NCBI GenBank assembly: GCA_963844965.1
Contig: CAWJQC010000007.1
Coordinates: 64,001 to 128,000 of the forward strand
DNA from: an uncultured bacterium
GTDB lineage: Bacteria; Patescibacteriota; Minisyncoccia; UBA6257; 2-01-FULL-56-20
Direction: 5' to 3'
Length of the DNA stretch: 64,000 nucleotides
Part shown: positions 23,688 to 57,990 of the stretch, piece after piece
Layout: each line of letters opens with the position of its first letter
Numbering within the stretch: position 1 is the stretch's first letter
Made by a program: the position numbers and the translations under genes
Notes under the pieces: generated by a model
The model's input: the letters and a program-made list of their open reading frames with translations, nothing else
What the model was told of the DNA's origin: nothing
Database searches by the model: none

Positions 23688-23741
23688 GACACAATGGTAG
23701 TTTGTTTCGACCTTTGTGTCTAAATTATCCTATCCGGGTCA

Positions 23742-23773
23742 ACCTTTGTGTCTAAATTATCCTATCCGGGTCA
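23742..23773. repeat. 32-bp tandem duplication of the IS3 left terminal repeat
   Basis: CCTTTGTGTCTAAATTATCCTATCCGGGTCA occurs twice in tandem at 23711-23741 and 23743-23773. Confidence 0.8.
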
Positions 23774-23951: not shown

Positions 23952-23953
23952 AT

Positions 23954-26650: not shown

Positions 26651-26687
26651 TTTAGACACAAAGGTCGAAACAAACTACCATTGTGTC

Positions 26688-26951
26688 ATGAGCAACAAAA
26701 AAGGGCATCGGATTGCGAAGGAAGTGAAGGCGGACATCCTCCGCCGGGTGAAGGAAGAAGGAGTCCCCGTAGCGCAGGCTGCGAAGGACCACGGTTTGCA
26801 CGAGTCCACCATCTACAATTGGCTAGGCGCAGGAGCATCGGGCGTCCCTTCCTGGGGCGAGTTCAGCCGTCTCCAGAAGCAGAACAGGGAGCTGTTTGAA
26901 GTGGTGGGCGAGCTCACCGTGAAGCTCTCCCAGGCCCAAAAAAAGAATTGA
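26688..26951 (+). CDS. IS3-family transposase OrfA (HTH)
   Basis: Identical to the product of 23424-23687. Confidence 0.85.
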   Translation: MSNKKGHRIAKEVKADILRRVKEEGVPVAQAAKDHGLHESTIYNWLGAGASGVPSWGEFSRLQKQNRELFEVVGELTVKLSQAQKKN

Positions 26952-27730: not shown

Positions 27731-27861
27731 CGAAAAAAAACGGCAAAAAGCCGTCGAATCACTGTCTAAAGAAACCTATCCTTTACATCGGGCAAAAAGT
27801 TAGAGTTTACAATGCGAAAACCGTTTGATGCGGTCCTCGAATTGGCTACTTGTCCAACTGG

Positions 27862-27933
27862 GCTCCGGCGCCTGGATTCGAACCAGGAACCTTCTCCTTA
27901 ACAGGGAGCCGCTCTACCGTTGAGCTACGCCGG
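27862..27933 (-). tRNA. tRNA-Asn (GTT anticodon)
   Basis: Cloverleaf with acceptor TCCGGCG/CGCCGGA, D-arm GCTC-AACGGTA-GAGC, anticodon loop CTGTTAA, and T-arm CCTGG-TTCGAAT-CCAGG. The first base is U1, as in E. coli tRNA-Asn. CCA is not encoded. Confidence 0.8.
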
Positions 27934-28087
27934 AATCCTTATTCTTATTAATGTATCAAAAAAACAGATTTTTTTCAATCTCGCCAGCCGCAATGCTGCG
28001 AGATCATACTTTAATGTTGAAAAAAAAGAAAAAAGCCGAGTGGTTGGAAAAGTTAGGAAAGGCGGCGTAAAAATTAAAACGTCCCGG

Positions 28088-38775: not shown

Positions 38776-39795
38776 ATGACCGAGTTGAAAAATCGGACTT
38801 TATATTTCGGCGACAATCTGGAAATCCTACGCGAGAAAATTCCCGACGAGAGTTTTGATTTGATTTACCTTGACCCGCCGTTCAATTCCAACCGTGCCTA
38901 CAATGTAATTTATAAGGAAGGGTTGCAGGACAGCCCGGCACAAATTAAGGCCTTTGAGGATTCTTGGCATTGGACGCCGGAGGCGCAGGCAACTTTTGAG
39001 GAACTTGTCGGCATGCGGCAATCAAGGACGAAAATCAACGCTGACATTGTCAATTTGATGCAGGCGATGGAAAAACTCGTGGGACACAATGATATGCTTG
39101 CGTACCTTACAATGATGACAGTTCGGCTCATTGAACTGCGGCGCGTTTTGAAGTCAACCGGCAGTATTTATCTGCATTGCGACCCGACCGCAAGCCATTA
39201 TTTGAAAATCGTGATGGACACGATTTTCGGAAAACAGAATTTCCAAAACGAAATTATTTGGTGTTATGAAATCGGAGCTAGAAGTAAAACACACTGGGGG
39301 AGTAAACACGATGTAATTCTCTTTTATACAAAATCAGGAAACTTTATCTTTAACACAAGGGCCGTTGCTGTGCCACGGAAAGAAGGGACACACATGAAAA
39401 CCGCAGTAGACGAAGAAGGAAGAGAATATCAAGAAAAGAAGGATGCAAAAAGTGGTAAGGTCTATAGATATTATCTTGATGAAGGCGCCATCCCTCCCGA
39501 TTGGTGGGTGGGAATTCAGCAATTAAATCGTGAAGCACAAGAAAGATTGCATTATCCCACCCAAAAACCCGAAGCGCTTCTGGAAAGAATTATTAAGGCA
39601 TCGTCTAACGGACCTCCGCCAAGTCCTTCGCTGATTGCGACAGAGACAGAGGAGGTGGAGGAGAATAGAGGCGATTGGGTTCTTGACCCGTTTTGCGGTT
39701 GCGGCACGACGGTTGCCGTCGCCGAGCGGCTGAAAAGAAACTGGGTCGGCATTGACCCGCTCCGCCGCAAGCCCCGGCCTTTAGGCCGAGGATAA
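38776..39795 (+). pseudogene. N4/N6 DNA methyltransferase (beta class) whose 3' end is interrupted by an IS200/IS605 element
   Basis: DPPFN motif IV near the N-terminus and DPFCGCGTT motif I near the C-terminus. The reading frame runs into IS sequence after ...NWVGID. Confidence 0.8.
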
Positions 39796-40320
39796 GGCGA
39801 CCCCGTAGCCCCGAGCGAAGCGAGGGGCGGAGGGCTTATTTGCCTGTTCCCACTGGTTTCTGCCGGTGCGATAATGAAGATAATGCCCTCTGGATTCTGG
39901 CCAAGCAACCACAGCTATACGCGATGTTTGTACCACGTTGTTTTCTGCCCAAAGTACCGCCGCTCGATACTGCGAGGGGACATGGTCGGGCGACTCAAGA
40001 CATTGTTCTTTCAAGCCGCCAAGATGAATAAATGGTTCATCCATGAAGCGCAGATAATGCCCGACCATGTCCATCTATTGCTTCAAATTCCTGCTACCCT
40101 GACGGTTGCCAAAGCGGTGTTTTATCTCAAAGGCGGTACGTCCAGGGCTGTCAGAAAAGAATTTCCCGAGCTGGAAGAATTCCTCTGGGGAGACAGCTTG
40201 TGGCAGGATGGTTACTTTGCCGAAACCGTTGGCCGTCAAAACGAAAAAGCGATGAGAGAATATATCAGAAACCAGTGGGAACAGGAGCCGAACACAAGCC
40301 GCGGGCTTTAGCCCGCGGTG
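39757..40320 (+). mobile_element. IS200/IS605-family element (tnpA only)
   Basis: Y1 HuH transposase ORF and subterminal hairpins (CCGCGGGC-TTTA-GCCCGCGG at 40297-40317). A 20-bp inverted repeat CCTGTTCCCACTGGTTTCTG occurs at 39844-39863 and 40266-40285. An ATTGAC hexamer abuts both ends. Confidence 0.75.
39874..40311 (+). CDS. tnpA: IS200/IS605 TnpA (Y1 HuH transposase)
   Basis: YHVVFCPKYRR ... MPDHVHLLLQIP (HuH motif) ... YIRNQ C-terminus. Confidence 0.9.
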   Translation: MKIMPSGFWPSNHSYTRCLYHVVFCPKYRRSILRGDMVGRLKTLFFQAAKMNKWFIHEAQIMPDHVHLLLQIPATLTVAKAVFYLKGGTSRAVRKEFPELEEFLWGDSLWQDGYFAETVGRQNEKAMREYIRNQWEQEPNTSRGL

Positions 40321-40935
40321 ATTGACATTACGATGCTTGCCATCAATTTAATAAAACACCGGCTGATAGACGGCTTGGGAGTGGGACGGAACGAAATATG
40401 CACCGACGGTATTCCAAAGGACTTGAGCGGAGCGGAGGAACTGGCCAAAAAGGACAGATTTGCCTTTGAGTATTGGGTTTTGGATTTGGTGAACGCCGTT
40501 CCGGCGCAAAGCAAGACGAAAGAAAATATGCGCGGCGCGGACAAGGGGATTGACGGCATAATTACCATCGTAAAGTCGGTCAAGGACAATAAAAAAGAGC
40601 TTGGGAAAATTTTGGTTCAGGTGAAAAGCGGCGGCGTCCATCGCGACGACGTAGCCACGCTTAAGAGCGACGTTGAACGGGAAAAGGCCGTCGGCGGCGT
40701 TTTCATCACGCTGGAAAAGCCGACTCAGCCGATGAGAACGGAGGCGGTTGAGGCGGGAACGTTCAGGGTTGACTACTCCCAGGAAAATTTGCCGAAAATT
40801 CAGATTATAACGGTTGAGGACTTGTTGAGCGGCAAGAAACTGGACCTGCCTCCGGCCGTGGCGCTTCAGGAAACCTACTATAAGGAAGCAAAACCTGCGA
40901 AACCCGAAAACAGGGCAAAAAAATTGGGAATATAG
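40318..40935 (+). pseudogene. Mrr-like PD-(D/E)xK restriction endonuclease domain, separated from the methyltransferase by the IS200 insertion (likely the C-terminal part of one fusion protein)
   Basis: FAFEYWVLDLV...GADKGIDGII...ILVQVKSG is the Mrr_cat pattern. The frame is open from the IS end with no ATG (GTG only). Joining ...NWVGID to ITMLAINLIKHRL... gives a typical methyltransferase C-terminal helix. Confidence 0.65.
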
Positions 40936-40941
40936 AATTTT

Positions 40942-41595
40942 ATGAATTTGGATGAATTTAAACTGCAGAATTTGGGCATTGACAAAGAAAAATTCGGAAA
41001 AATTCTCAGCTTTGTAGACTTCGGCAACGTTAATTATTGGTATGAGAAAGACCGGCGCGACTGGGAGGACAACACCATTAAGCCGAATCAAAGATTAATA
41101 ATTGATATCGCAAAACTCGCTCAATTTTTGAATCTTTTCTCTGATCAAAAGCGCTTTTACTACGGATGGCACAAGCGCATGAAGAGATCTTGGCATATTT
41201 TGGTATTGGCGGAGAGAAATGGATTTGTTAAAATTACCAAACCAATACAATTCATAAAGCATTATCTTGAAGAGTTAGAGTTGGCGAGCGCAAACGGGAG
41301 GCTTGTTAAAGAAGACTTGATGGGCAGGTATATTGAAATTCCAAAAAGCAATTTTGATGTAGAGATAAGCGTTGATTCAATTCGTTTGCTGGACAAATAC
41401 AATACATTTTGCTTGCTTTCCGGCGATAGCGATTTTACTTATTTAAACCGATTTTTAAAAAGAAGGGGGAAGAAAATTATTGTTATTGCTGCAGGTCAAA
41501 TACTTCATTCCCTAAAAGAAACCGCGGACTTATATATAAACGCGCAGACAATTAAGGGAAGCATTGCCGCCGTAAAAGAAACCTCGCCCGGTTAA
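40942..41595 (+). CDS. NYN-domain (LabA-like, PIN fold) protein
   Basis: FVDFGNVNYW, DVEISVD and LLSGDSDF acidic motifs. Confidence 0.7.
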   Translation: MNLDEFKLQNLGIDKEKFGKILSFVDFGNVNYWYEKDRRDWEDNTIKPNQRLIIDIAKLAQFLNLFSDQKRFYYGWHKRMKRSWHILVLAERNGFVKITKPIQFIKHYLEELELASANGRLVKEDLMGRYIEIPKSNFDVEISVDSIRLLDKYNTFCLLSGDSDFTYLNRFLKRRGKKIIVIAAGQILHSLKETADLYINAQTIKGSIAAVKETSPG

Positions 41596-41724
41596 GGGCG
41601 AGGTTTGGATATCGGATCCGTCTCCGACGGACAGGGTAGCTTGAGGCTACAAAGTAAGCATAGCATGGGCAATTATTAAAAGTCAATGAACTGTGGATAA
41701 TTAAAGGAGTAATCAAAATACAAC

Positions 41725-42507
41725 ATGTCCCAATATTACAAGCCGAAACGCGGCAGGAATTTATACAATCCGGCGAATCCGGAGCCGTTCGTCGTCAGCC
41801 GTTCCGGCATTGACCTATATATAGAGTGCCCGCGGTGTTTTTATCTGGACAGGCGTCTTGGCACCGCTAGGCCGCCGGGTTTTCCTTTCAGTTTGAACAC
41901 GGCGGTTGATGCTTTGCTCAAAAAAGAATTTGACATCCACCGCGCCGCGAACACGCAGCATCCCTTGATGAAAAAATATGGCATTGACGCCGTGCCCTAT
42001 GCGCACGAAAAGCTGGAAGAGTGGCGCGATTCCCGCCTTCGGGGCATAAAATTTTTCCACGAGCCGACGAATCTCACGATAAAAGGCGGCATTGACGACG
42101 TCTGGGTAAATCCGAAAGGAGAATTGCATATCGTGGATTACAAAGCTACCTCAAAAACATCGGAAGTTAACATTGACGCCGAGTGGCAGAGCGGATACAA
42201 GCGGCAGATGGAAGTTTACCAGTGGCTTTTCCGCAAGAACGGCTTTGATGTTTCCGACATCGGCTATTTCGTTTACTGCAACGGCGACACGGACAAAAAA
42301 GCGTTTGACGCCAAGCTGGAATTTAACGTCAAGGTGATTCCCTACAAAGGAAACGACGGCTGGGTGGAGGAAACGATTCGCGAGGTAAAAAGCTGCCTTG
42401 ATTTTGATGAACTTCCCGCGGCGAACGACAGCTGCGACTGGTGTGCCTACTTCGGCGCGAGAGAACGGCTGGAGAAAGGAAACAGCGACTTTATTGAGAG
42501 CGCGTGA
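41725..42507 (+). CDS. PD-(D/E)xK nuclease with a four-Cys cluster (Cas4/RecB-like)
   Basis: GIDDVWVNPKGELHIVDYKATSK core; N-terminal CPRC and C-terminal CDWC. Confidence 0.65.
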   Translation: MSQYYKPKRGRNLYNPANPEPFVVSRSGIDLYIECPRCFYLDRRLGTARPPGFPFSLNTAVDALLKKEFDIHRAANTQHPLMKKYGIDAVPYAHEKLEEWRDSRLRGIKFFHEPTNLTIKGGIDDVWVNPKGELHIVDYKATSKTSEVNIDAEWQSGYKRQMEVYQWLFRKNGFDVSDIGYFVYCNGDTDKKAFDAKLEFNVKVIPYKGNDGWVEETIREVKSCLDFDELPAANDSCDWCAYFGARERLEKGNSDFIESA

Positions 42508-45697: not shown

Positions 45698-46597
45698 ATG
45701 AAGTTGCCAAAGAAAGAAATTCCTACGCTCGCGGGAGTCGCCGCGGTGATTTTGCTTTTGGTTTTCGGGGGATATTATTTCTGGAAACTGAACGAAGAGA
45801 AGAAAATTCTTGAGGCGCGGAATACCACGCTCACGCAGTCCTTGAAGACCACCGAGGAAGCGCTTACGCGCCTCGAGGGGAATTTGTCGCAGTCCCAGAA
45901 AGACAACTCCGATCTCTCGGAGTCGCTCACGGCGGAAAAAACTAGGAACGATTCGTTCGCGTCGCAGATCAGCGACCTTTCGGGAACGGTCGGCACGCTT
46001 CAGAAGCTGGCCGCGACCGACCCGGAGCTTTTGATGAAATATTCCAAAGTTTATTTTTTGAGCGAAAATTACGTGCCCGCCCAACTTTCACCTATCGGTT
46101 CGGATTATCTTTACGACGAGAAAAAACCCCAGCTCATACTTTCCGGCGTTCTGCCGTACATCACGGCGATGCTCGCGTCGGCCAAGCGTGACGGAGTTGA
46201 ACTGCGCGTTCTTTCCGCCTACCGGTCTTTCTATGAGCAATTTTCGCTTAAGTACGAATACAAAATGGTCTACGGTTCGGGCGCCAACCAATTTTCTGCC
46301 GACCAGGGATATTCTGAGCACCAGCTGGGGACGGCTTGCGACTTCACGACGCCCGCGGTCGGTGGAAACCTTTCAGAATTCGCGAGTTCAACCGCTTATG
46401 CTTGGCTTACGGCGAACGCTTACGAATTCGGTTTCACGCTTTCCTATCCGGAAAACAATTCCTATTACCAGTTTGAACCGTGGCACTGGCGTTTCGTCGG
46501 TGTGGCTTTGGCGACCCATCTCCACGAAACGAACGAATATTTTTACGAGATGGCCCAGCGCGACATAGACCAATATCTCGTTTCATTTTTTGATTAG
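45698..46597 (+). CDS. M15-family D-Ala-D-Ala carboxypeptidase (VanY-like) with an N-terminal anchor and coiled coil
   Basis: SEHQLGTACD and EPWHWRFVG zinc-peptidase motifs. Confidence 0.75.
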   Translation: MKLPKKEIPTLAGVAAVILLLVFGGYYFWKLNEEKKILEARNTTLTQSLKTTEEALTRLEGNLSQSQKDNSDLSESLTAEKTRNDSFASQISDLSGTVGTLQKLAATDPELLMKYSKVYFLSENYVPAQLSPIGSDYLYDEKKPQLILSGVLPYITAMLASAKRDGVELRVLSAYRSFYEQFSLKYEYKMVYGSGANQFSADQGYSEHQLGTACDFTTPAVGGNLSEFASSTAYAWLTANAYEFGFTLSYPENNSYYQFEPWHWRFVGVALATHLHETNEYFYEMAQRDIDQYLVSFFD

Positions 46598-47060: not shown

Positions 47061-48230
47061 ATGGTTTCCAAGAAATTGTTTTGTTTCGGCATTATTGTTT
47101 CTCTTGTTTCTTTCGCGGGAGCGATGTCCTTTGTTTTTGCTCGCCAGCCGATAGACGGTTTTGAAGCTCATCATCCTATCCATGTGAGAGGAGAAGATTC
47201 TCATGGGAATATAACGGCTATCGCCGCCGCTCTTAGGCCCGATCAGACAACCAGCCTTACGCCGACAGCGATAAAGAGCGCATATAAATTGCCGGCAACC
47301 GGCGGCAGCGGAACGACGATTGCCATCGTGGACGCATACAACGATCCGAACATAGAAAACGACCTCAATGTCTTCAGTAAACAGTTTGGCTTGCCTTCGG
47401 TTACCAGTGCGAACTTCAGCGAGGTTTTAATGTCCCCGAGAGTTCAGAACGACAGCGGCTGGGGGCTTGAGGAATCACTCGATACCCAGTGGGCTCATGC
47501 TGTTGCGCCAAGCGCAAAAATTCTTCTAGTGATTGCGAAATCGGCGAGCGGCAATGACCTTCTTGCGGCAGTTGATTACGCGCGATCTCAGCGTGGCGTT
47601 GTGGCGGTCTCTATGAGCTGGGGTGGCAGCGAATTTTCAGGCGAGTCAAGCTATGATTCGTATTTTACGAGCAAGAACGGCAATAGCATTACCTTCTTTG
47701 CCGCCTCGGGAGATGGCGGACACGGTGTTGAATGGCCTGCGGTTTCTTCAAATGTCGTTGGCGTAGGCGGGACAACACTTACGCTCGCGGCGAACGGCGC
47801 AGTATCTTCTGAAACGGCCTGGAGCGGGAGTGGTGGAGGATTGAGCGGCTACGAGTCTGAGCCGGGCTACCAGACAACGTATAATATTCCAAATGATGCA
47901 AAAAAGTATCGGGCGGTACCGGATGTGTCGTATGATGCCGATCCCAATTCCGGTGTTTCGGTATATGACAGTTACGCTTATCAGGGATATAAGGGTTGGT
48001 TTGTCGTTGGCGGCACAAGCGTCGGAGCACCTCAATGGGCGGCAATCAAAGCGCTCGGCGGCACAGCCTCAAACCAGAAATTCTATCCGGACGCTTCGGG
48101 TGTCTCCTATGCATCCTACTTCCGCGACATCATGAGCGGCGGAAATGGTTCGTGTGCTCTTTATTGTACGGCCTCAGGTGGCTACGATTACGTTACTGGA
48201 CTCGGAAGTCCGCTTACGACAAAGTTCTAG
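47061..48230 (+). CDS. Secreted S8/S53-family serine peptidase (sedolisin-like)
   Basis: Signal peptide, IAIVDAY (catalytic Asp), and GGTSVGAPQWAAIKAL (catalytic Ser motif). Confidence 0.6.
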   Translation: MVSKKLFCFGIIVSLVSFAGAMSFVFARQPIDGFEAHHPIHVRGEDSHGNITAIAAALRPDQTTSLTPTAIKSAYKLPATGGSGTTIAIVDAYNDPNIENDLNVFSKQFGLPSVTSANFSEVLMSPRVQNDSGWGLEESLDTQWAHAVAPSAKILLVIAKSASGNDLLAAVDYARSQRGVVAVSMSWGGSEFSGESSYDSYFTSKNGNSITFFAASGDGGHGVEWPAVSSNVVGVGGTTLTLAANGAVSSETAWSGSGGGLSGYESEPGYQTTYNIPNDAKKYRAVPDVSYDADPNSGVSVYDSYAYQGYKGWFVVGGTSVGAPQWAAIKALGGTASNQKFYPDASGVSYASYFRDIMSGGNGSCALYCTASGGYDYVTGLGSPLTTKF

Positions 48231-48290: not shown

Positions 48291-48363
48291 ATTTGTCCGT
48301 GCGTTACCGGGCACCGGCTGTTTCTGTTATACTTAAACCAGATCTTGCGAAGGAGGTGGAATT

Positions 48364-48498
48364 ATGTTCGGTCAGATCTTTGCTATAGTATTTATCGTGG
48401 CCGAAGCCGCTGCAGTAACTTTTATTTTTGCCGGCGCCAGGCCGAAAAAGCCGAAAGAGTCCAGAGAGGAGAAGCAGGAGAAAAAGAAAGATAAGTAG
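48364..48498 (+). CDS. Unannotated 44-aa membrane peptide (MFGQIFAIVFIVAEAAAVTFIFAGARPKKPKESREEKQEKKKDK)
   Basis: Strong AAGGAGGTG Shine-Dalgarno 5 nt upstream of the ATG. One hydrophobic helix plus a charged tail, followed by its own terminator. Below the 60-aa threshold of the ORF track. Confidence 0.6.
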   Translation: MFGQIFAIVFIVAEAAAVTFIFAGARPKKPKESREEKQEKKKDK

Positions 48499-48533
48499 GC
48501 CGCCCATCGCGCTTCACCGGGCGGCTTTTTTTG
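48499..48533 (+). terminator. Intrinsic terminator
   Basis: GGCCGCCC-N13-GGGCGGC followed by TTTTTTT. Confidence 0.7.
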
Positions 48534-48673
48534 ATTACGTTGCGACACATCGCGCTTGCCTTGCGGAACCGCTCCATCATTCGGGCGAATGGTGGAATAG
48601 TTGATGAAATCGCTTAAATGTAGGATGATGCAGGGACCGCGGAAATTCCCGGCAAACGGCAAATTTTAAGCAG

Positions 48674-49420
48674 ATGAAAATAAGGAACATCGGCGCGGGG
48701 AAGGCAACAGTCCTCGTGGGCGTTCTCAAGCGCAAGCGGGATTTGGACATATTTCTCAAAGAACATTGGTATAGGATCCCGCTTCTTAAAGTGCCCAAGC
48801 GGAAGTTTCGTTATTTGGCGCTGTACGAACCGGCGCGCTTTGGACGGCGAAGCAAGTGCATCAGATATTACGCCCGCGTCGCGCGGTGCCTTGTGGAGAA
48901 GCGGCGCGAACTGCTGCCGGACGAAAGGGAGCATCCGAACGCCGAAGAGAGGTATCTGAGGATTCGCGTCGGCAGGGTCACGCGGTTGCCGCGGCCAATT
49001 CGGAACGTGCCGCCGCGCCGCCTGTCTTTCGGTTTCGCCGACCTTGACCGGCTGCTTGCCGTGAAGACCATTTTACAGCTTTACCACGTCGCTCCGACCG
49101 AGGAGATCGTCGGCGCGGCGCTCAAGCGTTCTCACATCCGCGCCATTCCCCAGTGCCATGTTTCGTGCGCCGGGAAACATTACTGTTTGGATTTCGCGGT
49201 CCATTGCGAACGCGGCTCAATTGCCGTTGAGTGCGACAATAAGAAAGCGCATGCCGGCGCCCGCCAGCAAGCGTACGATAGCGCCAAAGACACTTTTCTT
49301 TTTAATCATGGCTGGACGGTCATCCGGCTGAAGGAGGAAGCGATACTCTCCGATGTCCAATCCTGTGTTTTGCGGATACGGCGCGCCATAAAAAACTTCG
49401 GTGGAATGGCCTGTCGGTAG
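48674..49420 (+). CDS. DUF559-type (Vsr-like) endonuclease-domain protein, GC-rich and probably foreign
   Basis: C-terminal DFAVHCERGSIAVECDNKKAH...D..R...L...GWTVIRL pattern of DUF559. Arg-rich and visibly higher GC than neighbouring genes. Confidence 0.55.
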   Translation: MKIRNIGAGKATVLVGVLKRKRDLDIFLKEHWYRIPLLKVPKRKFRYLALYEPARFGRRSKCIRYYARVARCLVEKRRELLPDEREHPNAEERYLRIRVGRVTRLPRPIRNVPPRRLSFGFADLDRLLAVKTILQLYHVAPTEEIVGAALKRSHIRAIPQCHVSCAGKHYCLDFAVHCERGSIAVECDNKKAHAGARQQAYDSAKDTFLFNHGWTVIRLKEEAILSDVQSCVLRIRRAIKNFGGMACR

Positions 49421-49580
49421 TTGCCAGAAATTCGCGCCGCCATAAAAATTTCCGCGGGTGTTTGCCTGCTGGTAGGGCGGTTATGTTTTCGGATTTTTTC
49501 CGATTTCGTTTCCGCCGAGGGCGGATTAGCTTCCGATAGAAACCTACGGCGAGCCGTCGGGTAATTCAAGCGTCCTCACC

Positions 49581-50367
49581 GCCCGCCGGTTAACAATTGT
49601 TAACCGGCGGGCGGGAAGAGCAGGGTGTAATGAGGCGCGTAGCTCACCTGGCTGCTAATGGCGCGGCGCGATTTTCTCGCGCTAATTTCCGGGATGCGAA
49701 CCATTTCAGGATTTTCGGCAGATCGTTTTTGCTGATAACAAAAGCCCTCCCGATGCGGGTTGCCGGAATTCTCTTTTTGTCTATATTTTTGAAAACCGCG
49801 ACGCGGCTGATGCCCAAAACTTTCGCAAGTTCCGCCGTGGATATGAATTCCTTGTTGATCTCGTCCGCCATTCTCCGCATTTTCATTTTTCCACCTTAGC
49901 ACAATATCCGCGGGTTAACAATTGTTAACTTTGTCGGAATGGTAATCGGCCATAGTTAAAATCATAGTCAAAATGGTGGCTCATCTAGTGATTTGCCTCT
50001 GGTTGGGGGCTCTGAGTATCAACCAGTACCGGTTAACAATTGTTAACTTTGTCAGAATAGTGATTTGACATAGTTAGAACAATTAGAATGGTGACCTGCC
50101 ATAGTCGCATAGTCACGTGGCTCGTCCTTGGTGGTGGACTTTGGGCATCAATCGGCGCGGGTTAACAATTGTTAACTTTGTCAGAATGGTAATCTGTAGC
50201 CGGCGGGATCTCTGGCGGAGTCCTCCGCCAGGGGCGTGGTATCCCGGACATCAACTGGCGCCGGTTAACAATTGTTAACCGAGCAACAGAAAACAAAACC
50301 GAGAAAAAATCCCCCCAGTCATTTTTTCATCGTTTTTCCGTCCGCAGGTTAACAATTGTTAACCTGC
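49581..50367. repeat. Array of six perfect 16-bp palindromes GTTAACAATTGTTAAC. Copies 2-5 sit within ~100-130-bp degenerate tandem repeat units.
   Basis: Palindrome cores at 49589, 49914, 50032, 50161, 50264 and 50348. Three are extended to 22-32-bp perfect palindromes (for example GCCCGCCGGTTAACAATTGTTAACCGGCGGGC at 49581-49612). Copies 2-4 share a TTTGTCRGAATRGTRATY extension, and repeat units share ...ATCAAYNNNNCSGGTTAAC. Confidence 0.85.
49644..49886 (-). CDS. Excisionase-family / MerR-like helix-turn-helix DNA-binding protein
   Basis: ISTAELAKVLGISRVAVFKNIDKKRIPATRIGRAFVISKNDL matches the excisionase-family HTH pattern. Confidence 0.7.
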   Translation of the reverse strand: MKMRRMADEINKEFISTAELAKVLGISRVAVFKNIDKKRIPATRIGRAFVISKNDLPKILKWFASRKLARENRAAPLAAR

Positions 50368-50484
50368 ACTGTGCGCTGCCTGTTGACTATTACTGACTAT
50401 TAAAAAATGCGGGTAGATAAAGCGAGCACGGTATGGAGTTGGGGCCGCTTGACGATGCGCGGTCGCGGTGTTAATTTCATAAAT

Positions 50485-50967
50485 ATGAACGAGGAAAAGA
50501 GGGGGAAATATTGGAAGTTCGCGGTCGGGCTCGTCGCGCTCGTTCTTTTGGCGTTAGGGGCTTTTGTCGCGGCGAGGTATTATGGGCGACTGGAAGAGCA
50601 GCGGGCGGCGAACGACGCCACACAGTCGCTCCAAAAAGAAATCGCGGACTACAACGCGCGTCTCGCCTTGGACACCTACGGCGGCAAAACGCCGCAGGAA
50701 ACGCTGCAGCTCTACGTTGACGCCGTGGAGAAAGGCAACTACGTCCTCGCGAGCAAGTATTTCATAGGGGACAATCAGGAGAAGGAATTAAGCAGTTTAC
50801 AGAACAGTCCGAAGGAAAACACACAAAATGTTTTGCGTCTGCTTAAAACCGATCTTCAATCCGAAGGAAGTTTTTCTGAGAATAAAGATACGTATGGTAT
50901 AGAGAAGCCGCTTTTTGTTGATTTCAGACTTTATCCCAACGGCATCTGGAAGATTATAGAAATTTAG
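50485..50967 (+). CDS. Membrane-anchored hypothetical protein
   Basis: MNEEKRGKYWKFAVGLVALVLLALGAFVAA transmembrane anchor. Lies downstream of the palindrome array and is followed by a weak hairpin terminator at 51075-51096. Confidence 0.5.
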   Translation: MNEEKRGKYWKFAVGLVALVLLALGAFVAARYYGRLEEQRAANDATQSLQKEIADYNARLALDTYGGKTPQETLQLYVDAVEKGNYVLASKYFIGDNQEKELSSLQNSPKENTQNVLRLLKTDLQSEGSFSENKDTYGIEKPLFVDFRLYPNGIWKIIEI

Positions 50968-51141: not shown

Positions 51142-52107
51142 ATGAAAAAGAAGGCGATAAAAAATGAAATTGTAATATATCAGGCCAAAAACGGAGCGAT
51201 AGAATTTCGTAAGGACTTGCGCGCAGAAACGATTTGGGCAACGCAGGCGCAGATCGTTAAACTTTTTGATATTGATCAGTCAGTAGCTTCGCGGCACATA
51301 AGCAATATCTTCAAGGACGGCGAGGTTGACAAAAAAAGCAATATGCAAAAAATGCATATTGCAAATTCGGACAAACCAGTTGTTCTTTATTCACTCGATA
51401 TGATTTTAGCAGTCGGATATAGGACGAACTCGGGACGGGCGATAACTTTCCGCCAGTGGGCAACCAAGACCTTGCGGGCGCATATTATAGATAGCTATAC
51501 CATCAACCGTGCTCGCATTGCCCAGAATTACGAAGTTTTTCTGAAAGCGGTGGAAGATGTAAAAAAACTTCTTCCAACGGGCGGAGCAGTGGATATTGTC
51601 AATGTATTGGAATTGATCAAGACATTCGCGAGTACCTGGGTATCGCTGGATGCCTACGACAAATCCGCTCTGCCAAAGAGCGGCGCTACAAAAAAACAGG
51701 TTAAACTGACGGCGCAGGATTTCTCGGCCGCGCTCCTTGAACTTAGGCGGGAATTAACGGCCAAAAAAGAAGCCAGTGAACTTTTCGCGGTTGAACACCA
51801 GAAAGGAAACGTGACCGGTATAGTCGGCAACGTACTCCAATCCTTCGGCGGCAAAGACCTCTATCCAAGTGTTGAAGAAAAAGCGGCCCACCTTTTGTAT
51901 TTTATGGTTAAGAATCATCCGTTCACTGACGGCAACAAACGAGCAGGCGCATTTTCGTTCGTATGGTTTTTGAGAAAAGCCGGATTGCTGAATACCGCGC
52001 GCCTTACTCCCGAAGCCTTGACGGCGCTCACTCTGCTCGTTGCGGAAAGCAGTCCGAAAGACAAAGAGCGGGTAGTCGGATTGGCTCTTCTGCTTTTAAA
52101 AAAGTAG
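51142..52107 (+). CDS. RhuM-family N-terminal domain fused to a Fic/Doc domain
   Basis: N-terminal IVIYQAKNGAIEFRKD...WATQAQIVKLFD (RhuM-like). C-terminal HPFTDGNKRAG (Fic/Doc motif HxFx(D/E)GNKR). Confidence 0.7.
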   Translation: MKKKAIKNEIVIYQAKNGAIEFRKDLRAETIWATQAQIVKLFDIDQSVASRHISNIFKDGEVDKKSNMQKMHIANSDKPVVLYSLDMILAVGYRTNSGRAITFRQWATKTLRAHIIDSYTINRARIAQNYEVFLKAVEDVKKLLPTGGAVDIVNVLELIKTFASTWVSLDAYDKSALPKSGATKKQVKLTAQDFSAALLELRRELTAKKEASELFAVEHQKGNVTGIVGNVLQSFGGKDLYPSVEEKAAHLLYFMVKNHPFTDGNKRAGAFSFVWFLRKAGLLNTARLTPEALTALTLLVAESSPKDKERVVGLALLLLKK

Positions 52108-52339
52108 TTGCGACGAACCATCGAACAGTCCCACCCGTGCTCATCGGGGTTTAGTATTGGGGTGCGAAGCAGGGTGGTGAATGCGGCCTTTTTATATCCG
52201 GAGGATACCGCGTTCTACTGCTCTGGCCCGGCTAGGTTAATTGCCCCGACCTTGCGTCGGGGCTACTACCCATGAGCCCCATGGTGAAATTGCGACCAAA
52301 AATCGTGGCCGTAGGCCTTCGCAATTTCTACTATCGGGG

Positions 52340-52369
52340 CTGGAAAAATTCGCGAAAAAGTGGGAGAAT
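52340..52369 (+). promoter_or_regulatory. 30-bp motif CTGGAAAAATTCGCGAAAAAGTGGGAGAAT immediately upstream of the restriction endonuclease gene (copy 2)
   Basis: See copy 1. It ends 6 nt before the ATG at 52376. Confidence 0.6.
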
Positions 52370-52375
52370 GGGGAT

Positions 52376-53062
52376 ATGTCACAAGAGCAAATTAGGAAAA
52401 AAAATGGAGGCGCGGCAATCAAGGCTTTAGTCTCGGCAGGAGAAGAGATTTTGTCTAATTTGCAGCGAGTTATTGCTGTTGGCGGTTTCGATTATCGCAC
52501 TTTTGGTACGGCCATCGAGAAACACCTTAGCAATATTATTGTCAAAATTTTTAAAGAGAGAGGTTTTATTAGAAATAATCGGGATTACATTGTTGCACCA
52601 CATAAAAATTATTTTCCTGATTTTGAGTTAAAAACTGCGCCGCCCATTGCGATAGAGTTTAAATCCGGCAATAAAAGTCAGAACAGAAAGGGCAAATGGG
52701 TTACCGTTAAAAACAGCGAGAACGATATGGGCACGTTGAACGAGTGGCCCAAAAAGATTAAAAGATTTGGGGGAGAAAATATATACTATGTTTTTGTAAT
52801 CTATAATTTTAATAAAAAAACGAAACAGATCTTGAGTATAGAAATAGCCCCATTTTATAAATTTTTAGGACTTAGCAAGGGAAGCGTTCTTAAATATAGA
52901 GAAAAAGACGGAAATTTGCGGCCAAAAAATTTCGACGCCGAACCGCCGATAAAAAACCTGAGTCAGTTTGAGCAGTTATTTAATAAAACTATAATTTACA
53001 GATCAAAACGAATAATCAAAAAACACAAGCTAATTATTAAAAAAGCATCCTCGGGTTCTTGA
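52376..53062 (+). CDS. PD-(D/E)xK Type II restriction endonuclease candidate
   Basis: FPDFELKTAPPIAIEFKSG fits the PD...ExK pattern. Convergent with the methyltransferase and overlaps its 3' end by 26 bp. The start was chosen at the Met directly downstream of the conserved motif. Confidence 0.55.
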   Translation: MSQEQIRKKNGGAAIKALVSAGEEILSNLQRVIAVGGFDYRTFGTAIEKHLSNIIVKIFKERGFIRNNRDYIVAPHKNYFPDFELKTAPPIAIEFKSGNKSQNRKGKWVTVKNSENDMGTLNEWPKKIKRFGGENIYYVFVIYNFNKKTKQILSIEIAPFYKFLGLSKGSVLKYREKDGNLRPKNFDAEPPIKNLSQFEQLFNKTIIYRSKRIIKKHKLIIKKASSGS

Positions 53063-54617
53063 CGTTCACAGGGCTAGCTTTTTTATTAATTTGTTTTCTG
53101 GCAATAGCGAATGCGGGGTTATCTATCGGATAGATTCCTTCATCTTCGGATATCGTTAAATTTCTCAGATATTTTGATGCAACTTCTGGGGTATCGCCAT
53201 TGTATTTATAGCCGTTACTTGATCTATAATTAACTTTTTTGAGCTTGTCCGCAACAATTTTTTTATATTTTGGATCTATGTCAATACCGATATAGTTTCG
53301 GCCGAGTCGCTTTGCGGCCAATGCGGTTGTTCCTGCCCCAACGAAAGGATCTAGTACCACGTCGCCCTCGTCCGTCGTCATCAGAATCAAGCGTTCAAGT
53401 AGCGGCTCCGGAAGTTGGCACGGATGGGCGTCTCTGCGCGCATTATGTCTTATGCGGTGAATATCGGCCCAAACATCGCTTAGAAGTGTTCCGTGCGGGT
53501 GTATCTGACTTTTCTTTCCTCCGTAATCTTTGATCATTTTGCCACAACTCCGGCATTTCTTATGTGGCGCCCTAAGTTCGTGGAATTTAAATCCTTTGGG
53601 AAGTTTTGTATAGAATAGTATTCCGTAGTGTGCGGGTAATAAGGTTTTGCCTAAAGGCGTACTCATTGAATCCCACGCGATCCAGTGTTTAAAGACCGCA
53701 ATCTTATTGAGATGATTAGCATAATAAATTAACCACTTTGGTATATTGTGGACCAAAATAGAGCCCGTTGGTTTAGTTATTCTAACCATCTCGGTTAGCC
53801 ATTGCTCACACCACTTTATATAATCTTCCGCCGCTTTTTTGTCTTTATAGCTGCCGTATTTCTTATTTAGGTTAAATGGAGGGTCCGCGAAGGTCATATC
53901 AATTGAGTCGGCGGGAAGTTTTCTCATTTCCTCAATCGAATCTCCGCATAAAATTTCGTTGAGCGGTATCTTTTTGTATTGCTTATATTCTGTTTTTGTT
54001 TCCGGAAAGGTGACAGTAGAGGGAGTTTCTTCGCTGATAACATCGAGTACTATTCCTTGTATGGAAATATCCCGGCCATTTCGAAAGATTAGAGGCTCCA
54101 TGTTTTTGTTCGCCGGTTGTAAACGGATTCGGCCCCGTTCTTTATAGAATTTTTTAAGCGTTGCTTCGTGATTATCTATAAGTGCCACCACCTTTTGTCC
54201 ATTTTCGGCAACGCCCTGTTGTTTAACCAAGACGAGATCGCCATTGTTTATATTTTCGTCAACCATACTGTTTCCGACCACGCGTAGAGCGAAGAATTCT
54301 CCGGAGCGGGGAAGTTTGCTTTGCGGAACGGCAATGGTTTCTTTTTCCTCAACAGCTTCAATCGGCTGGCCGGCAGCTATGATGCCTAACAGGGGGATGC
54401 TAACCATTTTTTCCGATTCAGAAATTTGAATGCCGCGTCGCTTGTTCTCTTCTATTCGCAGGTGGCCGCCTTCCTGGAGCTTCTGAAGGTGTTCATGAAT
54501 GGTTCCGACTGCTCGCTTAAAATGTTTAGCTGTCTCCGGGATAGAAGGAGAGTAGCCATGTTTTTTTGAGTACGTTTTAAAAAAATCCAGAACCTCCTTT
54601 TGTTTTTTAGTGATCAT
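53037..54617 (-). CDS. LexA-like repressor (HTH plus S24 peptidase domain) fused to an N4/N6 DNA methyltransferase
   Basis: N-terminal ~200 aa: KQKEVLDFFK...HL, IPLLGIIAAGQPIEA, GNSMVDENINNGDLVLV and ATLKKF, the Ser/Lys dyad context of LexA. C-terminal ~320 aa: DPPFN, VLDPFVGAGTT and GIDIDPKY methyltransferase motifs. Confidence 0.75.
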   Translation of the reverse strand: MITKKQKEVLDFFKTYSKKHGYSPSIPETAKHFKRAVGTIHEHLQKLQEGGHLRIEENKRRGIQISESEKMVSIPLLGIIAAGQPIEAVEEKETIAVPQSKLPRSGEFFALRVVGNSMVDENINNGDLVLVKQQGVAENGQKVVALIDNHEATLKKFYKERGRIRLQPANKNMEPLIFRNGRDISIQGIVLDVISEETPSTVTFPETKTEYKQYKKIPLNEILCGDSIEEMRKLPADSIDMTFADPPFNLNKKYGSYKDKKAAEDYIKWCEQWLTEMVRITKPTGSILVHNIPKWLIYYANHLNKIAVFKHWIAWDSMSTPLGKTLLPAHYGILFYTKLPKGFKFHELRAPHKKCRSCGKMIKDYGGKKSQIHPHGTLLSDVWADIHRIRHNARRDAHPCQLPEPLLERLILMTTDEGDVVLDPFVGAGTTALAAKRLGRNYIGIDIDPKYKKIVADKLKKVNYRSSNGYKYNGDTPEVASKYLRNLTISEDEGIYPIDNPAFAIARKQINKKASPVNVKNPRMLF

Positions 54618-54798: not shown

Positions 54799-57700
54799 AT
54801 GCGAATAGCAAATAAGCTATCCGCGCACCAATCCCGCCTGGCGGGATGGTGCGGGATTTCGCTCCGCGGATCTACTCATTTGATAAAGCAAATGCGCGTT
54901 GGAAGCCGCGGAGCTCAACTTTTTGTTGTGTTGATTTTCTGTTTTGTTTTCCTGCCGTATCCCGGTGTCGTTTCGGCTTACGATAATTTGACGACACATC
55001 CGGCGCTCACGCAGGAGGTTGTTGATTTCTACAACAACGGCGGAAATTCCATAACGGCGGAGGAAAAAGAATGGATTATACAAGGGAGCGTTGAGGAAGA
55101 CACGCCGCCGAGGTGGCTGAACCATTTTTACGACCCGATAAGCGGGCAGGGTTGGACCGGCGAAAACACGGGAGAGTTGCCGTCAAGCTTTGTCTTGGAA
55201 TTTTCCGACCTATTTCTCGCGCCGGCAGACCCCGTCTCCGCCGTGCATTGGGTGAATGACGAGCTCACGCAATTGGAATACGGCCGCTATGGCGGCGACT
55301 GGACATGGAAACGCGGGCTCAGATATTTTGCCGACGGCGACAAGAAAGACGCCTATATTGCTTTGGGCCACACCCTGCATCTTTTGGAAGATATGGCCGT
55401 GCCGGAGCACACGAGGAACGATACGCACGTTGACCTGGGCGGCGTGGCGGGCGAATACGGTTCGCCGTACGAGGAATACGCGACCAAGTGGACGCGTACG
55501 ACGATTGGCGATTTGCACATTGTGGACGCGCTTCGCGCCGAGAACGCGACACCGCCCGCGAAAACATCAATTGAGGATTATTTGATTTCCGTCGCGCAAT
55601 ATTCCAATAAATATTTTTTCTCCAAGGATACGATTAACTCGGCGAAGTATTCTCTGCCGAAAATCGTCCGAGATGACGGGAATTTCGGATATGGAATTGA
55701 TGAAAATGAAACAGAGTTTCCGTTGGTAAAAGTTCATCAAACGAAAGATGCGAACAACAATATCCTTACGGGATATTCTATTGAGAACCTTCAAGATTAT
55801 CACCCTGTCCTTGATGCCTACTTTTCTCATCTCGCCCGGCAGGCGGTTCTGAACGGAGCGGGCGCGATAGCTTTATTCCAAAAGCAGGCGCAGGACGCCG
55901 TCGTCAACAAAGATTTCCAGTTCCAGACGGTGAACGAGGACGTGGTGAAGCCCGTCGTCTCCGGATTCTCTCTTTATGGTGAATTTGTGCAGGCGGCGAA
56001 TACGGTTGGAAGTTTCATCGGCAACGCTTTCTCCACGGTCGGCGGCTGGTTCGGCAGCGGCGGCGCGTTGATTGCCGACGCGTTCGGGACGATTACCGGC
56101 CCGAACGAGATAACGATTGTCCCTGAATTAACGACGTCGGACATCGTTAATTCGGGGAATAATGCAACATCAGGACATCCGACGTCCGAGAATTGCGTTA
56201 ATGTTGGGGACGTCGGATGTCCAAGCATTGGCGCGACAAATTCTACACAACATTCCAACATTCTTGAGAATGTTGGAATGTTGTCGTCCACCGTTGTCGG
56301 AGATGTTCCGGCTCAATCGTCGTCGCAGGAAGAACTCGCGGCCGCGCTTGGCAGGTTGGTTGAATTACTGCGGGGTCGGTTTGCGGCGAGTGTCGCGCCG
56401 ACATCCACCCAAATTGCGCCGGTTGCCGGCGGCGGTTCGGCGCTGCTTACCGCAAGCGGCGGCGGAAATTCTCCGGGCGGCGTGAGCATCGTGCTCGCGG
56501 ACGCGGGAGGAGCGTCAACGGCCGGATCGCAAACGGATTCAACGAGTTCCTCGCAGACGGATTCCACAAATTCCGCGAGTTCAACCGATTCACAGCAAGC
56601 CGGTTCCGGGCAGGCCTCCTCAACCGATTCGGGTCAAGCAACTTCAACCGATTCCTCCCAGCAAAATTCCAGCTCGGGAGAGACCACTTCCACCGGTTCA
56701 GGGATTGCCGTTTTGCTGGCCGACGTTCCCTCATCCATGTTTGCCCAGCGCGTTGATTCCACGGTATCAATTGGAAGCGATTACTCCGACAGCTGGTACG
56801 AGTTGGGAACTGGATTTTCCGGAACAATACACTCGCTCACGTTCTACGGATACGCCGATATCATCAGGCCGGATTTCGCCTCGCACATTTGGCTTGATGA
56901 GTTTAACGACCCGGGTTACGCAAGTTCCAGCAACCACTGGGTGATTTCCGATAACGCGCCGTTCGGCACGAGCGCCGGTTATGTCACGATTGGCGGCTTG
57001 AACATCACACTCTCGCCCGATAAATATTATCGCCTGGACACCTATCAGAGCGAGCAGAACAGAAATGTTTATCTCCTGGGCACGAGTTCCACGGGCACGG
57101 CGATGCGCAACTGGTTTTCCTATGGCACGGGGCGCGTGGAAGAACTTTATACTTTTTATCCGTACATCGTGGCGGATAAGCCGGTTCTAAATATTTCTTC
57201 ACTCGCGCAATATCAGCCGGACGGAACGACGGCGATCGGCGAAGGAGACGAGATAAGCGGGGACGCGGTTGCTCTCGGCGCGGTGCCGCAGTCATCGCCG
57301 GAGGGTCACCTGCAGCTGGAGGCACAAATGTTCACGACCGTGTCGCAGGGCGCGTGGTTCTCAAATCCTGTCGTTGACGCAGCCGGTTCTTTTGTTGCGT
57401 CCGGCGGCACGGCGACAGTTGCCGTAAAATTGCCGCGGAACGGATTTTACCATTGGCGCGCGAGGGCCGTGAATATTTGGGGCGACACTTCGGATTGGCT
57501 GGAGTTCGGAACACCGGGCAACACGGACTTCACGGCGCTTCACGTTTATCCAACACCGCCTCCGAGCCAGACGGTTTTTGATGCTTCTACAACATTGCCG
57601 ATGTCCGTCGGCTGCGAGAACGTGACAGGGGACGGGAGCGTGATAAGCAACGTCCGGGTTAAATACAAAACTGCAGATGCCGGCAACAATCCGCGTTTCA

Positions 57701-57990
57701 TAATAGAGACACCTCTTTATCCCGATGATTACAATAATTGCACGGGCAAGGATTCGCCGGCTTCCGCCGGCGCGGATAATCTCTACGACAGCGACTGGCA
57801 CGACATCAATTTCACTTTTCCGTCCACCACGCTTGAACTGGGAAAGCGTTATTTGTACCTTTTCATGTGCACGAACACTGGCTGTTATTTCGGCGGTTCC
57901 GCGTCCGATACTTATTCCGGCGGTAATTGGCTTTCCGGAAGCGGCATTGAGGACGCTTACTTCACGAGCGACGGCGTTGTCCAACAGTAG
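54799..57990 (+). CDS. 1063-aa secreted protein with an N-terminal zinc phospholipase C / P1-nuclease-like domain and long S/T-rich regions
   Basis: Signal anchor, then NHFYDP and LGHTLHLLEDMAVPEHT (PLC/P1 zinc ligands), then S/T/D/Q-rich low-complexity stretches. Confidence 0.55.
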   Translation: MRIANKLSAHQSRLAGWCGISLRGSTHLIKQMRVGSRGAQLFVVLIFCFVFLPYPGVVSAYDNLTTHPALTQEVVDFYNNGGNSITAEEKEWIIQGSVEEDTPPRWLNHFYDPISGQGWTGENTGELPSSFVLEFSDLFLAPADPVSAVHWVNDELTQLEYGRYGGDWTWKRGLRYFADGDKKDAYIALGHTLHLLEDMAVPEHTRNDTHVDLGGVAGEYGSPYEEYATKWTRTTIGDLHIVDALRAENATPPAKTSIEDYLISVAQYSNKYFFSKDTINSAKYSLPKIVRDDGNFGYGIDENETEFPLVKVHQTKDANNNILTGYSIENLQDYHPVLDAYFSHLARQAVLNGAGAIALFQKQAQDAVVNKDFQFQTVNEDVVKPVVSGFSLYGEFVQAANTVGSFIGNAFSTVGGWFGSGGALIADAFGTITGPNEITIVPELTTSDIVNSGNNATSGHPTSENCVNVGDVGCPSIGATNSTQHSNILENVGMLSSTVVGDVPAQSSSQEELAAALGRLVELLRGRFAASVAPTSTQIAPVAGGGSALLTASGGGNSPGGVSIVLADAGGASTAGSQTDSTSSSQTDSTNSASSTDSQQAGSGQASSTDSGQATSTDSSQQNSSSGETTSTGSGIAVLLADVPSSMFAQRVDSTVSIGSDYSDSWYELGTGFSGTIHSLTFYGYADIIRPDFASHIWLDEFNDPGYASSSNHWVISDNAPFGTSAGYVTIGGLNITLSPDKYYRLDTYQSEQNRNVYLLGTSSTGTAMRNWFSYGTGRVEELYTFYPYIVADKPVLNISSLAQYQPDGTTAIGEGDEISGDAVALGAVPQSSPEGHLQLEAQMFTTVSQGAWFSNPVVDAAGSFVASGGTATVAVKLPRNGFYHWRARAVNIWGDTSDWLEFGTPGNTDFTALHVYPTPPPSQTVFDASTTLPMSVGCENVTGDGSVISNVRVKYKTADAGNNPRFIIETPLYPDDYNNCTGKDSPASAGADNLYDSDWHDINFTFPSTTLELGKRYLYLFMCTNTGCYFGGSASDTYSGGNWLSGSGIEDAYFTSDGVVQQ

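Follow-up and report, generated by a model that had tools for sequence, protein, structure and literature searches.

What keeps six perfect copies of one short palindrome around a single small gene? The question is raised by a stretch of 64,000 nucleotides from an uncultured bacterium of the Patescibacteriota (contig CAWJQC010000007.1, positions 64,001 to 128,000; hereafter the window), in which the 16-mer GTTAACAATTGTTAAC is arrayed around a gene for a small helix-turn-helix (HTH) protein. Judged by its sequence relatives, the locus is a predicted orphan repressor that derives from an antitoxin and is accompanied by an amplified operator array. We consider it highly probable that the palindrome is the operator of the HTH protein and that the array serves its regulation.

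A palindrome array around an HTH gene

The initial annotation of the window had described six palindromes within about 790 bp. Six exact copies of the 16-mer are indeed found, all between 49589 and 50363 (Table 1), with start-to-start gaps of 325, 118, 129, 103 and 84 bp. No seventh copy was detected in the 64 kb with up to 3 mismatches; 0.26 copies are expected by chance, and none of 100 shuffled sequences reached six. Each copy contains two HpaI sites (GTTAAC) and one MfeI site (CAATTG), while GTTAAC occurs an unremarkable 6 times in the 63 kb outside the array. A CRISPR array had been excluded at the outset, and we agree: the repeats are perfect 16-bp palindromes, their spacing of 84–325 bp is irregular, and part of the would-be spacers is itself repeated. 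Of the degenerate tandem units of 100–130 bp described earlier, the shared ends are real. Conservation between units in the unit alignment is confined to about 18 nt on either side of the palindrome, with TTTGTCRGAATRGTRATY as the right flank of copies 2–4 and CATCAAYnnGCGCSG as the left flank of copies 3–5. The repeated long unit itself did not hold up, as the unit interiors do not align (mean column identity 57%) and Tandem Repeats Finder reported no long-period tandem array. The 18-nt left flanks of the six copies are about 34–77% identical, whereas the palindromes are 100% identical. On its minus strand the conserved flank TTTGTCGGAATGGTAATC has a TTGACA-like hexamer; on the plus strand it forms a weak rightward promoter, TTAACA-17-AATRGT. 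An Rfam search of the array and the whole window found no known RNA family in the array, and returned chance matches to miRNA models and one tRNA.

Copies 1 and 2 enclose the HTH gene. The perfect palindrome just past its stop codon measures 36 bp and not 32 bp as first annotated; the copy placed about 28 bp upstream of the start is separated by 27 nt from the ATG at 49886. The start of the gene may be the ATG at 49880 (78 aa), as in the two related loci L008 and L001 described below. The earlier guess of an excisionase-family HTH protein is borne out by matches to PF12728 (HTH_17; 31.5 bits, cut-off 27, E = 2e-7) and to TIGR01764 'excisionase family' (36.3 bits, cut-off 28.8). In an AlphaFold2 model (mean predicted local distance difference test score 78.7) a strand (residues 14–16) is followed by an HTH (helices 17–24 and 28–36), a two-stranded wing (43–45 and 48–52) and a long C-terminal helix (53–73). 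Foldseek neighbors of this model are the DNA-binding domain of RacA, RdfS, Xis, BldC and the DNA-binding domain of pSK1 Par, the top matches having a probability of about 1 and a template modeling score of up to 0.8 on the target. The best match by sequence in the PDB is Pukovnik Xis (E = 0.003). The closest solved relatives of the fold, namely RacA, BldC, Xis and pSK1 Par, are each proteins that bind short repeats in arrays.

Table 1. Positions in the window of the array, the HTH gene and the neighboring genes
Feature	Positions	Strand	Description
Orphan HTH_17 / excisionase-family winged-helix gene	49644–49886	minus	80 aa; without Doc partner and without the C-terminal KEYGETLKLLG motif
Promoter-like site of the HTH gene	49901–49928	minus	TTAACA (within copy 2)-16 nt-TATTGT, then Shine-Dalgarno sequence GGTGGA and ATG
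Palindrome copy 1	49579–49614 (16-mer 49589–49604)	none	Perfect palindrome of 36 bp, 30 nt beyond the stop codon of the HTH gene
Palindrome copy 2	49914–49929	none	Proximal operator (predicted); overlaps the -35 of the HTH promoter
Palindrome copy 3	50032–50047	none	Unit is a diverged duplicate of the promoter-operator segment (predicted)
Palindrome copy 4	50161–50176	none	Unit is a diverged duplicate of the promoter-operator segment (predicted)
Palindrome copy 5	50264–50279	none	20-bp perfect palindrome
Palindrome copy 6	50344–50367 (16-mer 50348–50363)	none	24-bp perfect palindrome; about 40–120 bp upstream of the next plus-strand gene
Conserved flank TTTGTCGGAATGGTAATC	49930–49947; again 50048–50065 and 50177–50194	none	Version in L008: TTTGTCAAAATGGTGATC
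Divergent neighbor, 186-aa open reading frame (ORF)	50407–50967	plus	Likelier start 50486 (MNEEKRG...); N-terminal membrane anchor; no family match
RhuM + Fic/Doc protein	51142–52107	plus	321 aa; HPFTDGNKR motif; PADLOC candidate defense family PDC-S23, end to end, E = 1.7e-101
273-aa ORF	52241–53062	plus	PD-(D/E)XK-like FPDFE...IEFK motif
LexA-methyltransferase fusion	53037–54617	minus	Full-length LexA (DNA-binding domain and S24 self-cleaving peptidase; TIGR00498, E = 1.7e-50) and beta-class N6/N4 methyltransferase

The palindrome marks a family of HTH_17-Doc modules

The exact 16-mer was searched for in 185,579 species genomes (one per species, 596 Gb), where about 140 matches are expected by chance, and was found at 120 loci or more. 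In 21 of the 120 loci listed, a homolog of the window HTH protein (44–62% identical, tblastn) begins 30–120 bp downstream of the 16-mer. These 21 loci belong to Patescibacteria/Saccharibacteria, Omnitrophota, Elusimicrobiota, Nitrospirae, Planctomycetales and Gammaproteobacteria. The search was also run in the opposite direction, with loci fetched by HTH homology alone (L002–L007 and L159–L163). All of them have at least two GTTAAC hexamers within about 100 bp upstream of the HTH gene: L002–L007 and L162 carry the 16-mer with one mismatch, L163 carries GTTAAC-CTAT-GTTAAC, and L159 and L161 carry GTTAAC-N13-GTTAAC. In these sequence comparisons the palindrome is linked to the HTH clade by two independent routes, one led by the DNA and one by the protein. 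Dozens of unrelated genomes have the palindrome on the promoter of an HTH homolog, which strongly supports the operator array that the initial annotation had named first. Wide distribution as a generic repeat, named there as the case that would speak against such an array, was not observed; the 16-mer is absent elsewhere in the window, and in public genomes it occurs in single copies, many of them directly before a homologous HTH gene.

The arrangement of the hexamers is regular. In 28 distinct upstream regions GTTAAC is found 2–6 times per 150 bp, compared to 0.009 times per 150 bp elsewhere in those loci, and the hexamers are spaced by 10 bp (28 times) or about 19 bp (17 times), which corresponds to a single and a double helical turn. 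In 19 of the 28 regions a hexamer is preceded, at a distance of exactly 5 nt, by a -35-like TTGAYN (TTGAYN-N5-GTTAAC), which places the operator over the spacer and the -10 position. In 3 more the operator begins 3 nt after a TATAGT -10. Such a location on the core promoter is the position expected of a repressor's operator.

A profile search returned at least 2,612 clusters of this HTH_17-Doc family at E ≤ 1e-5. In every context examined, an HTH protein of 85–97 aa is directly followed by a protein of about 141 aa, often with overlapping stop and start codons. In most loci this partner shows the motif HPFQNGNKR and belongs to TIGR01550 DOC_P1 (death-on-curing family toxin) or PF02661 Fic/DOC. 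The window HTH protein is 44–72% identical to canonical members over residues 11–60 approximately. The recognition-helix region LGISRxAV is invariant in the family alignment, which fits the invariant GTTAAC hexamer. All 14 canonical members aligned share the C-terminal motif AVKKTVKEYGETLKLLGKE, which is missing in the window protein and in P0002, its homolog from L001. Antitoxins that combine a DNA-binding domain with a linear neutralizing tail of the 'Phd-C' type have been described (PMC10440598), and by this analogy the canonical tail is probably the toxin-binding part. Truncated MerR-like HTH antitoxins have already been described for PIN toxins (PMC2701414). Some family members (P0023, P0024, P0028 and P0040; 160–174 aa) appear to be tandem double-HTH fusions.

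In a literature search we found no published description of an HTH_17/excisionase-Doc pairing or of the 16-mer. A tblastn search of 72,556 PLSDB plasmids and of INPHARED phages with a canonical member gave only remote HTH_17 matches. Viral contigs contained 26 single matches to the 16-mer, none of them with an HTH gene, consistent with chance. A pattern of two palindromes was not found in the species genomes. In metagenome contigs it was found in only four satellite contigs, a weak negative since the collection is incomplete and missed L001. These four (L009–L012; PVBE010585228.1, PVBE010801867.1, MPMD02376307.1 and PVBE010745999.1) consist of (GTTAACAATT)n satellites with a 10-bp period, which yield tandem 16-mers; we rejected them as relatives of the array, as they are unrelated to the HTH system, and note that they can confound pattern searches.

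Three solo loci retain the HTH gene and the palindromes

We call the window, L008 and L001 solo loci, as all three have the HTH gene without a Doc gene. The protein encoded on the 674-bp contig L008 (P0001) is 97–99% identical to the window protein, and P0002 from the 3.3-kb contig L001 is 73% identical; further relatives are proteins of about 85 aa that are 50–70% identical over the DNA-binding domain. The conserved C-terminal tail is absent from the window protein and P0002, and the alignment shows basic tails in its place, unrelated to the canonical motif. Neither a Doc ORF nor a Doc remnant detectable by tblastn lies downstream of the HTH gene in the window, L008 or L001, and no remnant of the canonical tail was found beside the solo HTH genes. 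The RhuM-Doc gene of the window (51142–52107), a separate gene on the opposite strand, is its sole Doc-like sequence. Searches for more solo or array loci with P0002 and the family profile found only canonical 85-aa members.

The palindromes, in turn, are multiplied in all three loci: six in the window, at least three on the 674 bp of L008, and six perfect plus four one-mismatch copies in L001. In every case one copy precedes the ATG by about 27 bp, and another is located within a GC-armed palindrome just past the stop codon. The arms of this 3' palindrome differ while their complementarity is kept (CCGCCCGCCG in the window, GCGTCG/CGACGC in L001). As RNA, copy 1 of the window folds into a 16-bp stem (z = -5.2; L001 counterpart z = -4.8), and no U-tract follows either hairpin; this copy may function in RNA as a hairpin, or in DNA as a cruciform or a 3' operator. 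The loci have unrelated wider surroundings, with a DUF559 nuclease gene and a defense operon around the window locus and an 84-aa ORF and tsaD around L001. The shared unit is therefore the HTH gene with its palindromes. The conservation of the palindrome in L001, amid otherwise unrelated flanks, adds to the case for an operator array.

Comparison of the units suggests how the copies arose. Between the window and L008 the DNA separating the palindromes is 63% identical and becomes unalignable further upstream, with the palindromes intact. L008 keeps the HTH promoter layout of the window, and a perfect TTGACA is kept in its flank. On the minus strand, units 2–4 read GATTACCATTCYGACAAA-palindrome-CCGCGSnGATTGATGC, and the real promoter reads GATTACCATTCCGACAAA-palindrome-CCGCGGATATTGTGC. 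The 13-mer GTTAACCCGCGGA and GTTGATGTCC are common to units of the window and of L001, and the L001 units resemble L001's own promoter. By their sequence, the extra palindrome copies resemble the HTH gene's promoter-operator segment after duplication and decay. Perfect palindromes amid diverged flanks point to the sites being under selection, although the copies may also have undergone gene conversion.

Each of the three solo loci has, upstream of its HTH promoter, a second short repeat (window 49930–50110, L008 150–210, L001 190–235). It reads GAATGGTRAYnnGnCATAGT in three copies in the window, GATCACCATTTTGAC in two copies in L008 and GGACATTTCTACTTTGC in two copies in L001, and could be a further binding site or promoter debris. 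GTTGATGTCC occurs near palindromes in the window (minus strand of 50246–50255) as well as in L001. A further contig, L164 (Logan ERR10755942, 1294 bp, equal to window 48315–49608), stops 4 nt past palindrome copy 1. It would appear that short-read assemblies are interrupted at these repeats, which bears on the copy number of the array.

The genomic surroundings were compared with those of the HTH-Doc locus L006 of Nealsonbacteria. Only a VanY gene is shared nearby, and the two 186-aa ORFs found at the two loci are unrelated, so the comparison gives no support to an origin in situ. The VanY-type D-Ala-D-Ala carboxypeptidase (45698–46597, plus strand) is 51% identical to its L006 counterpart (9071–9976), which lies about 4 kb from the HTH-Doc module. 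It is the sole hint of a shared neighborhood between the window and L006, a Parcubacteria-type contig, and suggests that the window comes from a related bacterium of the Candidate Phyla Radiation type.

A proposed orphan repressor on an amplified operator array

From these comparisons we propose the following course of events. The window protein would descend from the antitoxin and repressor of the large HTH_17-Doc two-gene family, and its lineage would have lost the gene for the Doc toxin as well as the C-terminal tail that presumably binds it. The promoter-operator segment would then have been duplicated several times, with selection keeping the palindromes perfect while the rest of the duplicates decayed. 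Each palindrome is predicted to be bound by two protein subunits, one per GTTAAC hexamer and one helical turn apart. Bound at copy 2, the HTH protein would repress its own promoter. Copies 2–6 together with the 3' copy 1 may be occupied cooperatively or by looping, which would place the gene and the divergent region of roughly 450 bp in a repressed nucleoprotein complex. Such a complex could also limit transcription towards the neighboring operon of membrane protein, RhuM-Doc and restriction-modification genes. That the array controls this operon as well is a tentative extension, which we hold to be somewhat the less probable case.

The locus shares with toxin-antitoxin modules the homology of the DNA-binding domain and an operator of the form GTTAAC-N4-GTTAAC on the HTH promoter; with both the toxin gene and the neutralizing tail missing, we do not class it as such a module. 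The nearest known model is phd-doc of phage P1. Relatives of the window protein resemble Phd in size (about 85 aa), in their position upstream of, and often overlapping, a DOC_P1-family gene, in having the DNA-binding domain at the N-terminus and a conserved tail at the C-terminus, and in a palindromic operator on their own promoter. In contrast to phd-doc, the window has no toxin gene and no tail, its six operators extend over 790 bp instead of one to three within about 60 bp, and its DNA-binding domain is of the HTH_17 (Xis/MerR-like) type, not of the Phd/YefM fold. The MqsA antitoxin binds its palindrome at other promoters too. The window resembles MqsA-type systems in combining an antitoxin-type DNA-binding domain with a short palindrome that is also present away from the toxin-antitoxin promoter, but its toxin would have been lost and the extra sites are clustered in cis at the regulator gene and not at distant promoters. 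The likeness to RacA with its ram sites, BldC, pSK1 Par and Xis/RdfS lies in the predicted fold and in a small winged-helix protein with multiple sites; sequence similarity is marginal, the site sequences differ, and the window offers no integrase or replicon context. With sopC of the F plasmid, parC of R1 and iteron origins the array has in common repeated units with a protein site beside the gene of the binder. It differs from them by the lack of a partition ATPase or Rep, by its irregularity, by its location on a chromosomal contig and by sites that are palindromes on a family of promoters shared with toxin-antitoxin modules.

Several observations weigh against an operator array of this kind. 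The HTH protein as the binder of the palindromes is a prediction drawn from sequence. In the solo loci the TTGACA-like -35 is located 2 nt from the palindrome, as opposed to 5 nt in the canonical family, and the solo promoter itself is a weak consensus with 9 of 12 matches. L001 has three palindromes in a convergent intergenic region (1586–1789, bounded by the 84-aa ORF and the tsaD 3' end), which would not be expected to contain a promoter, so repression of a promoter would not be the sole role of the extra copies. The site spacings of 84–129 bp in the window keep no constant helical phase, and the 186-aa neighbor gene has no promoter that is clearly overlapped by a palindrome. The known solo or array loci number three, two of which are nearly identical. 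Finally, the genome sample was fetched with the exact 16-mer, which overstates the exactness of conservation.

Weighing the alternatives

The initial annotation had left room for a centromere-like site or an iteron origin of an integrated plasmid, or for an integrative element at 48.6–54.7 kb. In a centromere- or kinetochore-like site the winged-helix protein would coat the array for the segregation or anchoring of a plasmid, an integrated element or the chromosome. The small DNA-binding gene beside an array of its presumed sites in a divergent intergenic region would suit this idea, as would the structural neighbors RacA on DNA (5i44), pSK1 Par on centromere DNA (8csh) and TubR, the long C-terminal helix of the model, which could mediate oligomerization, and the extra sites in L001 away from promoters. 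Yet no partition ATPase, Rep, relaxase or integrase gene was found within about 10 kb, and ORFs at 38.7–63.5 kb gave no Pfam or NCBIfam match to ParA, ParM, TubZ or Rep. The 331-kb contig to which the window belongs carries housekeeping genes, the family was not found on the 72,556 sequenced plasmids, and the Foldseek E-values are weak (0.03–0.2) and reflect a shared fold only. The sequence relatives are without exception antitoxin-like partners of Doc, with no partition or replication proteins among them, and have the site on their own promoters. We regard a centromere as quite unlikely. An iteron origin was rejected, as the palindromes lie at irregular spacings of 84–325 bp with neither a tandem array nor a Rep gene. 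The integrative element fares no better, with no integrase nearby and defense and restriction genes as neighbors. For the same lack of an integrase or recombinase near the array (rve-domain genes occur only at 22.6–27.7 kb) we find it extremely improbable that the palindromes are sites of an excisionase (recombination directionality factor) at an attachment site, despite the 'excisionase family' annotation and Xis and RdfS among the structural neighbors. Moreover, the binding sites of such factors are direct repeats located at one of the element's ends, not perfect palindromes around their own gene, and the relatives of the window protein pair with Doc and not with integrases. A cluster of restriction sites tied to the neighboring restriction-modification system or to its LexA domain is just as improbable. 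The LexA-methyltransferase fusion and a putative endonuclease are located 2–4 kb away, and TAAC-N4-GTTA loosely resembles a LexA box of the form GAAC-N4-GTTC. However, the 273-aa ORF is without similarity to solved endonucleases, HincII and MunI included, and a role of GTTAAC or CAATTG as the restriction-modification target could not be read from it, nor is the specificity of the methyltransferase inferable. Above all, the HTH-Doc promoters in the 28 loci share the site without a common integrase or restriction-modification context.

Two further alternatives accept the link to HTH-Doc modules and explain the number of copies differently. The array could be a sponge, that is a sink for HTH proteins or HTH-Doc complexes, by which the orphan would cross-silence canonical modules, located elsewhere or carried by incoming elements, in the manner of anti-addiction. 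Many HTH-Doc modules from different phyla have an identical operator, so that cross-talk is plausible in physical terms. The orphan retains the DNA-binding domain without the toxin-binding tail, L001 has sites outside promoters, and the array lies in a defense island beside a Doc-domain defense gene. A sink of six to ten sites would be small, however, and no canonical HTH-Doc module was seen in the 64-kb window, which makes a sponge unlikely. The extra copies might also be a non-functional by-product, left over from local duplications through hairpin or cruciform slippage or recombination, with only the promoter-proximal copy being functional. Units that resemble decaying promoter-operator copies, the irregular spacing and an array layout that differs wholly between the window and L001 would be expected in this case. 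Neutral decay at the rate of the flanks would have hit the 16-mers as well, but the six copies are perfect next to 18-nt flanks of about 34–77% identity, both palindromes are intact in the 63%-identical inter-palindrome DNA of L008, and L001 independently keeps its six perfect and four one-mismatch copies. Although gene conversion could still account for this, we consider a mere by-product very doubtful. Beyond a repressor with its operator array, the toxin-antitoxin repressor may have given rise to a self-contained nucleoprotein module, which we think rather unlikely but less so than any of the preceding alternatives. As one possibility it could serve as a chromatin-like silencer or insulator in cis, or as a kinetochore-like anchor in the style of RacA/ram or pSK1 Par, in a small-genome bacterium of the Candidate Phyla Radiation type. 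It could also serve as an anti-addiction sponge-repressor that cross-silences incoming HTH-Doc modules, the operator being common to the entire family in different phyla.

The neighboring defense genes and the wider window

The genes following the array on the plus strand (Table 1) begin with the 186-aa ORF, a possible regulatory target of the array. The C-terminal Doc domain of the RhuM-Doc protein is 38% identical to Doc toxins of the canonical HTH relatives (E = 6e-15). The 273-aa ORF had no match in Pfam, NCBIfam, PADLOC or the PDB; the LexA-methyltransferase gene is convergent with it and overlaps it by 26 bp. Together these two genes may constitute a damage-responsive restriction-modification system.

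A second cluster of defense and mobile genes occupies 38776–42507 and comprises an N6/N4 methyltransferase (38776–39795), an IS200-type Y1 transposase (39874–40311), an Mrr-like endonuclease (40318–40935), a NYN-domain protein (40942–41595) and a PD-(D/E)XK nuclease (41725–42507). Further upstream, the 100% complementary arms of a 1,162-bp inverted repeat (22587–23748 and 26627–27788) each hold an rve (IS3-type) transposase gene (22645–23427, minus; 26948–27730, plus). The repeat encloses a gene for a 902-aa helicase of the ResIII/SNF2 type (23942–26650), ends beside tRNA-Asn (27859–27935) and represents either a structure that resembles a composite transposon or an artefact of assembly. Two other large ORFs, both on the plus strand, are without a Pfam match, one of 1,063 aa with a Ser/Thr/Gly-rich middle (54799–57990) and one of 389 aa that looks secreted (47061–48230).

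Significance

The HTH_17-Doc family to which the window protein is related is very large, toxin-antitoxin-like and uncharacterized, and most of it comes from Patescibacteria and Omnitrophota that have not been cultured. Its predicted operator is defined at base-pair resolution and is essentially the same in six or more phyla, an unusually clean case for asking how a repressor-operator pair remains frozen as it spreads horizontally. A shared operator also raises the question of cross-regulation between modules in different genomes. For annotation the family offers a signature, namely a promoter with GTTAAC hexamers at distances of 10 and about 19 bp beside an HTH_17 gene of about 85 aa, and this operator at the level of the family is perhaps a more useful product than the single locus. 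The solo loci, in turn, would illustrate a route from an antitoxin to a free-standing repressor with amplified operators, which bears on the domestication of toxin-antitoxin components as regulators in defense islands.

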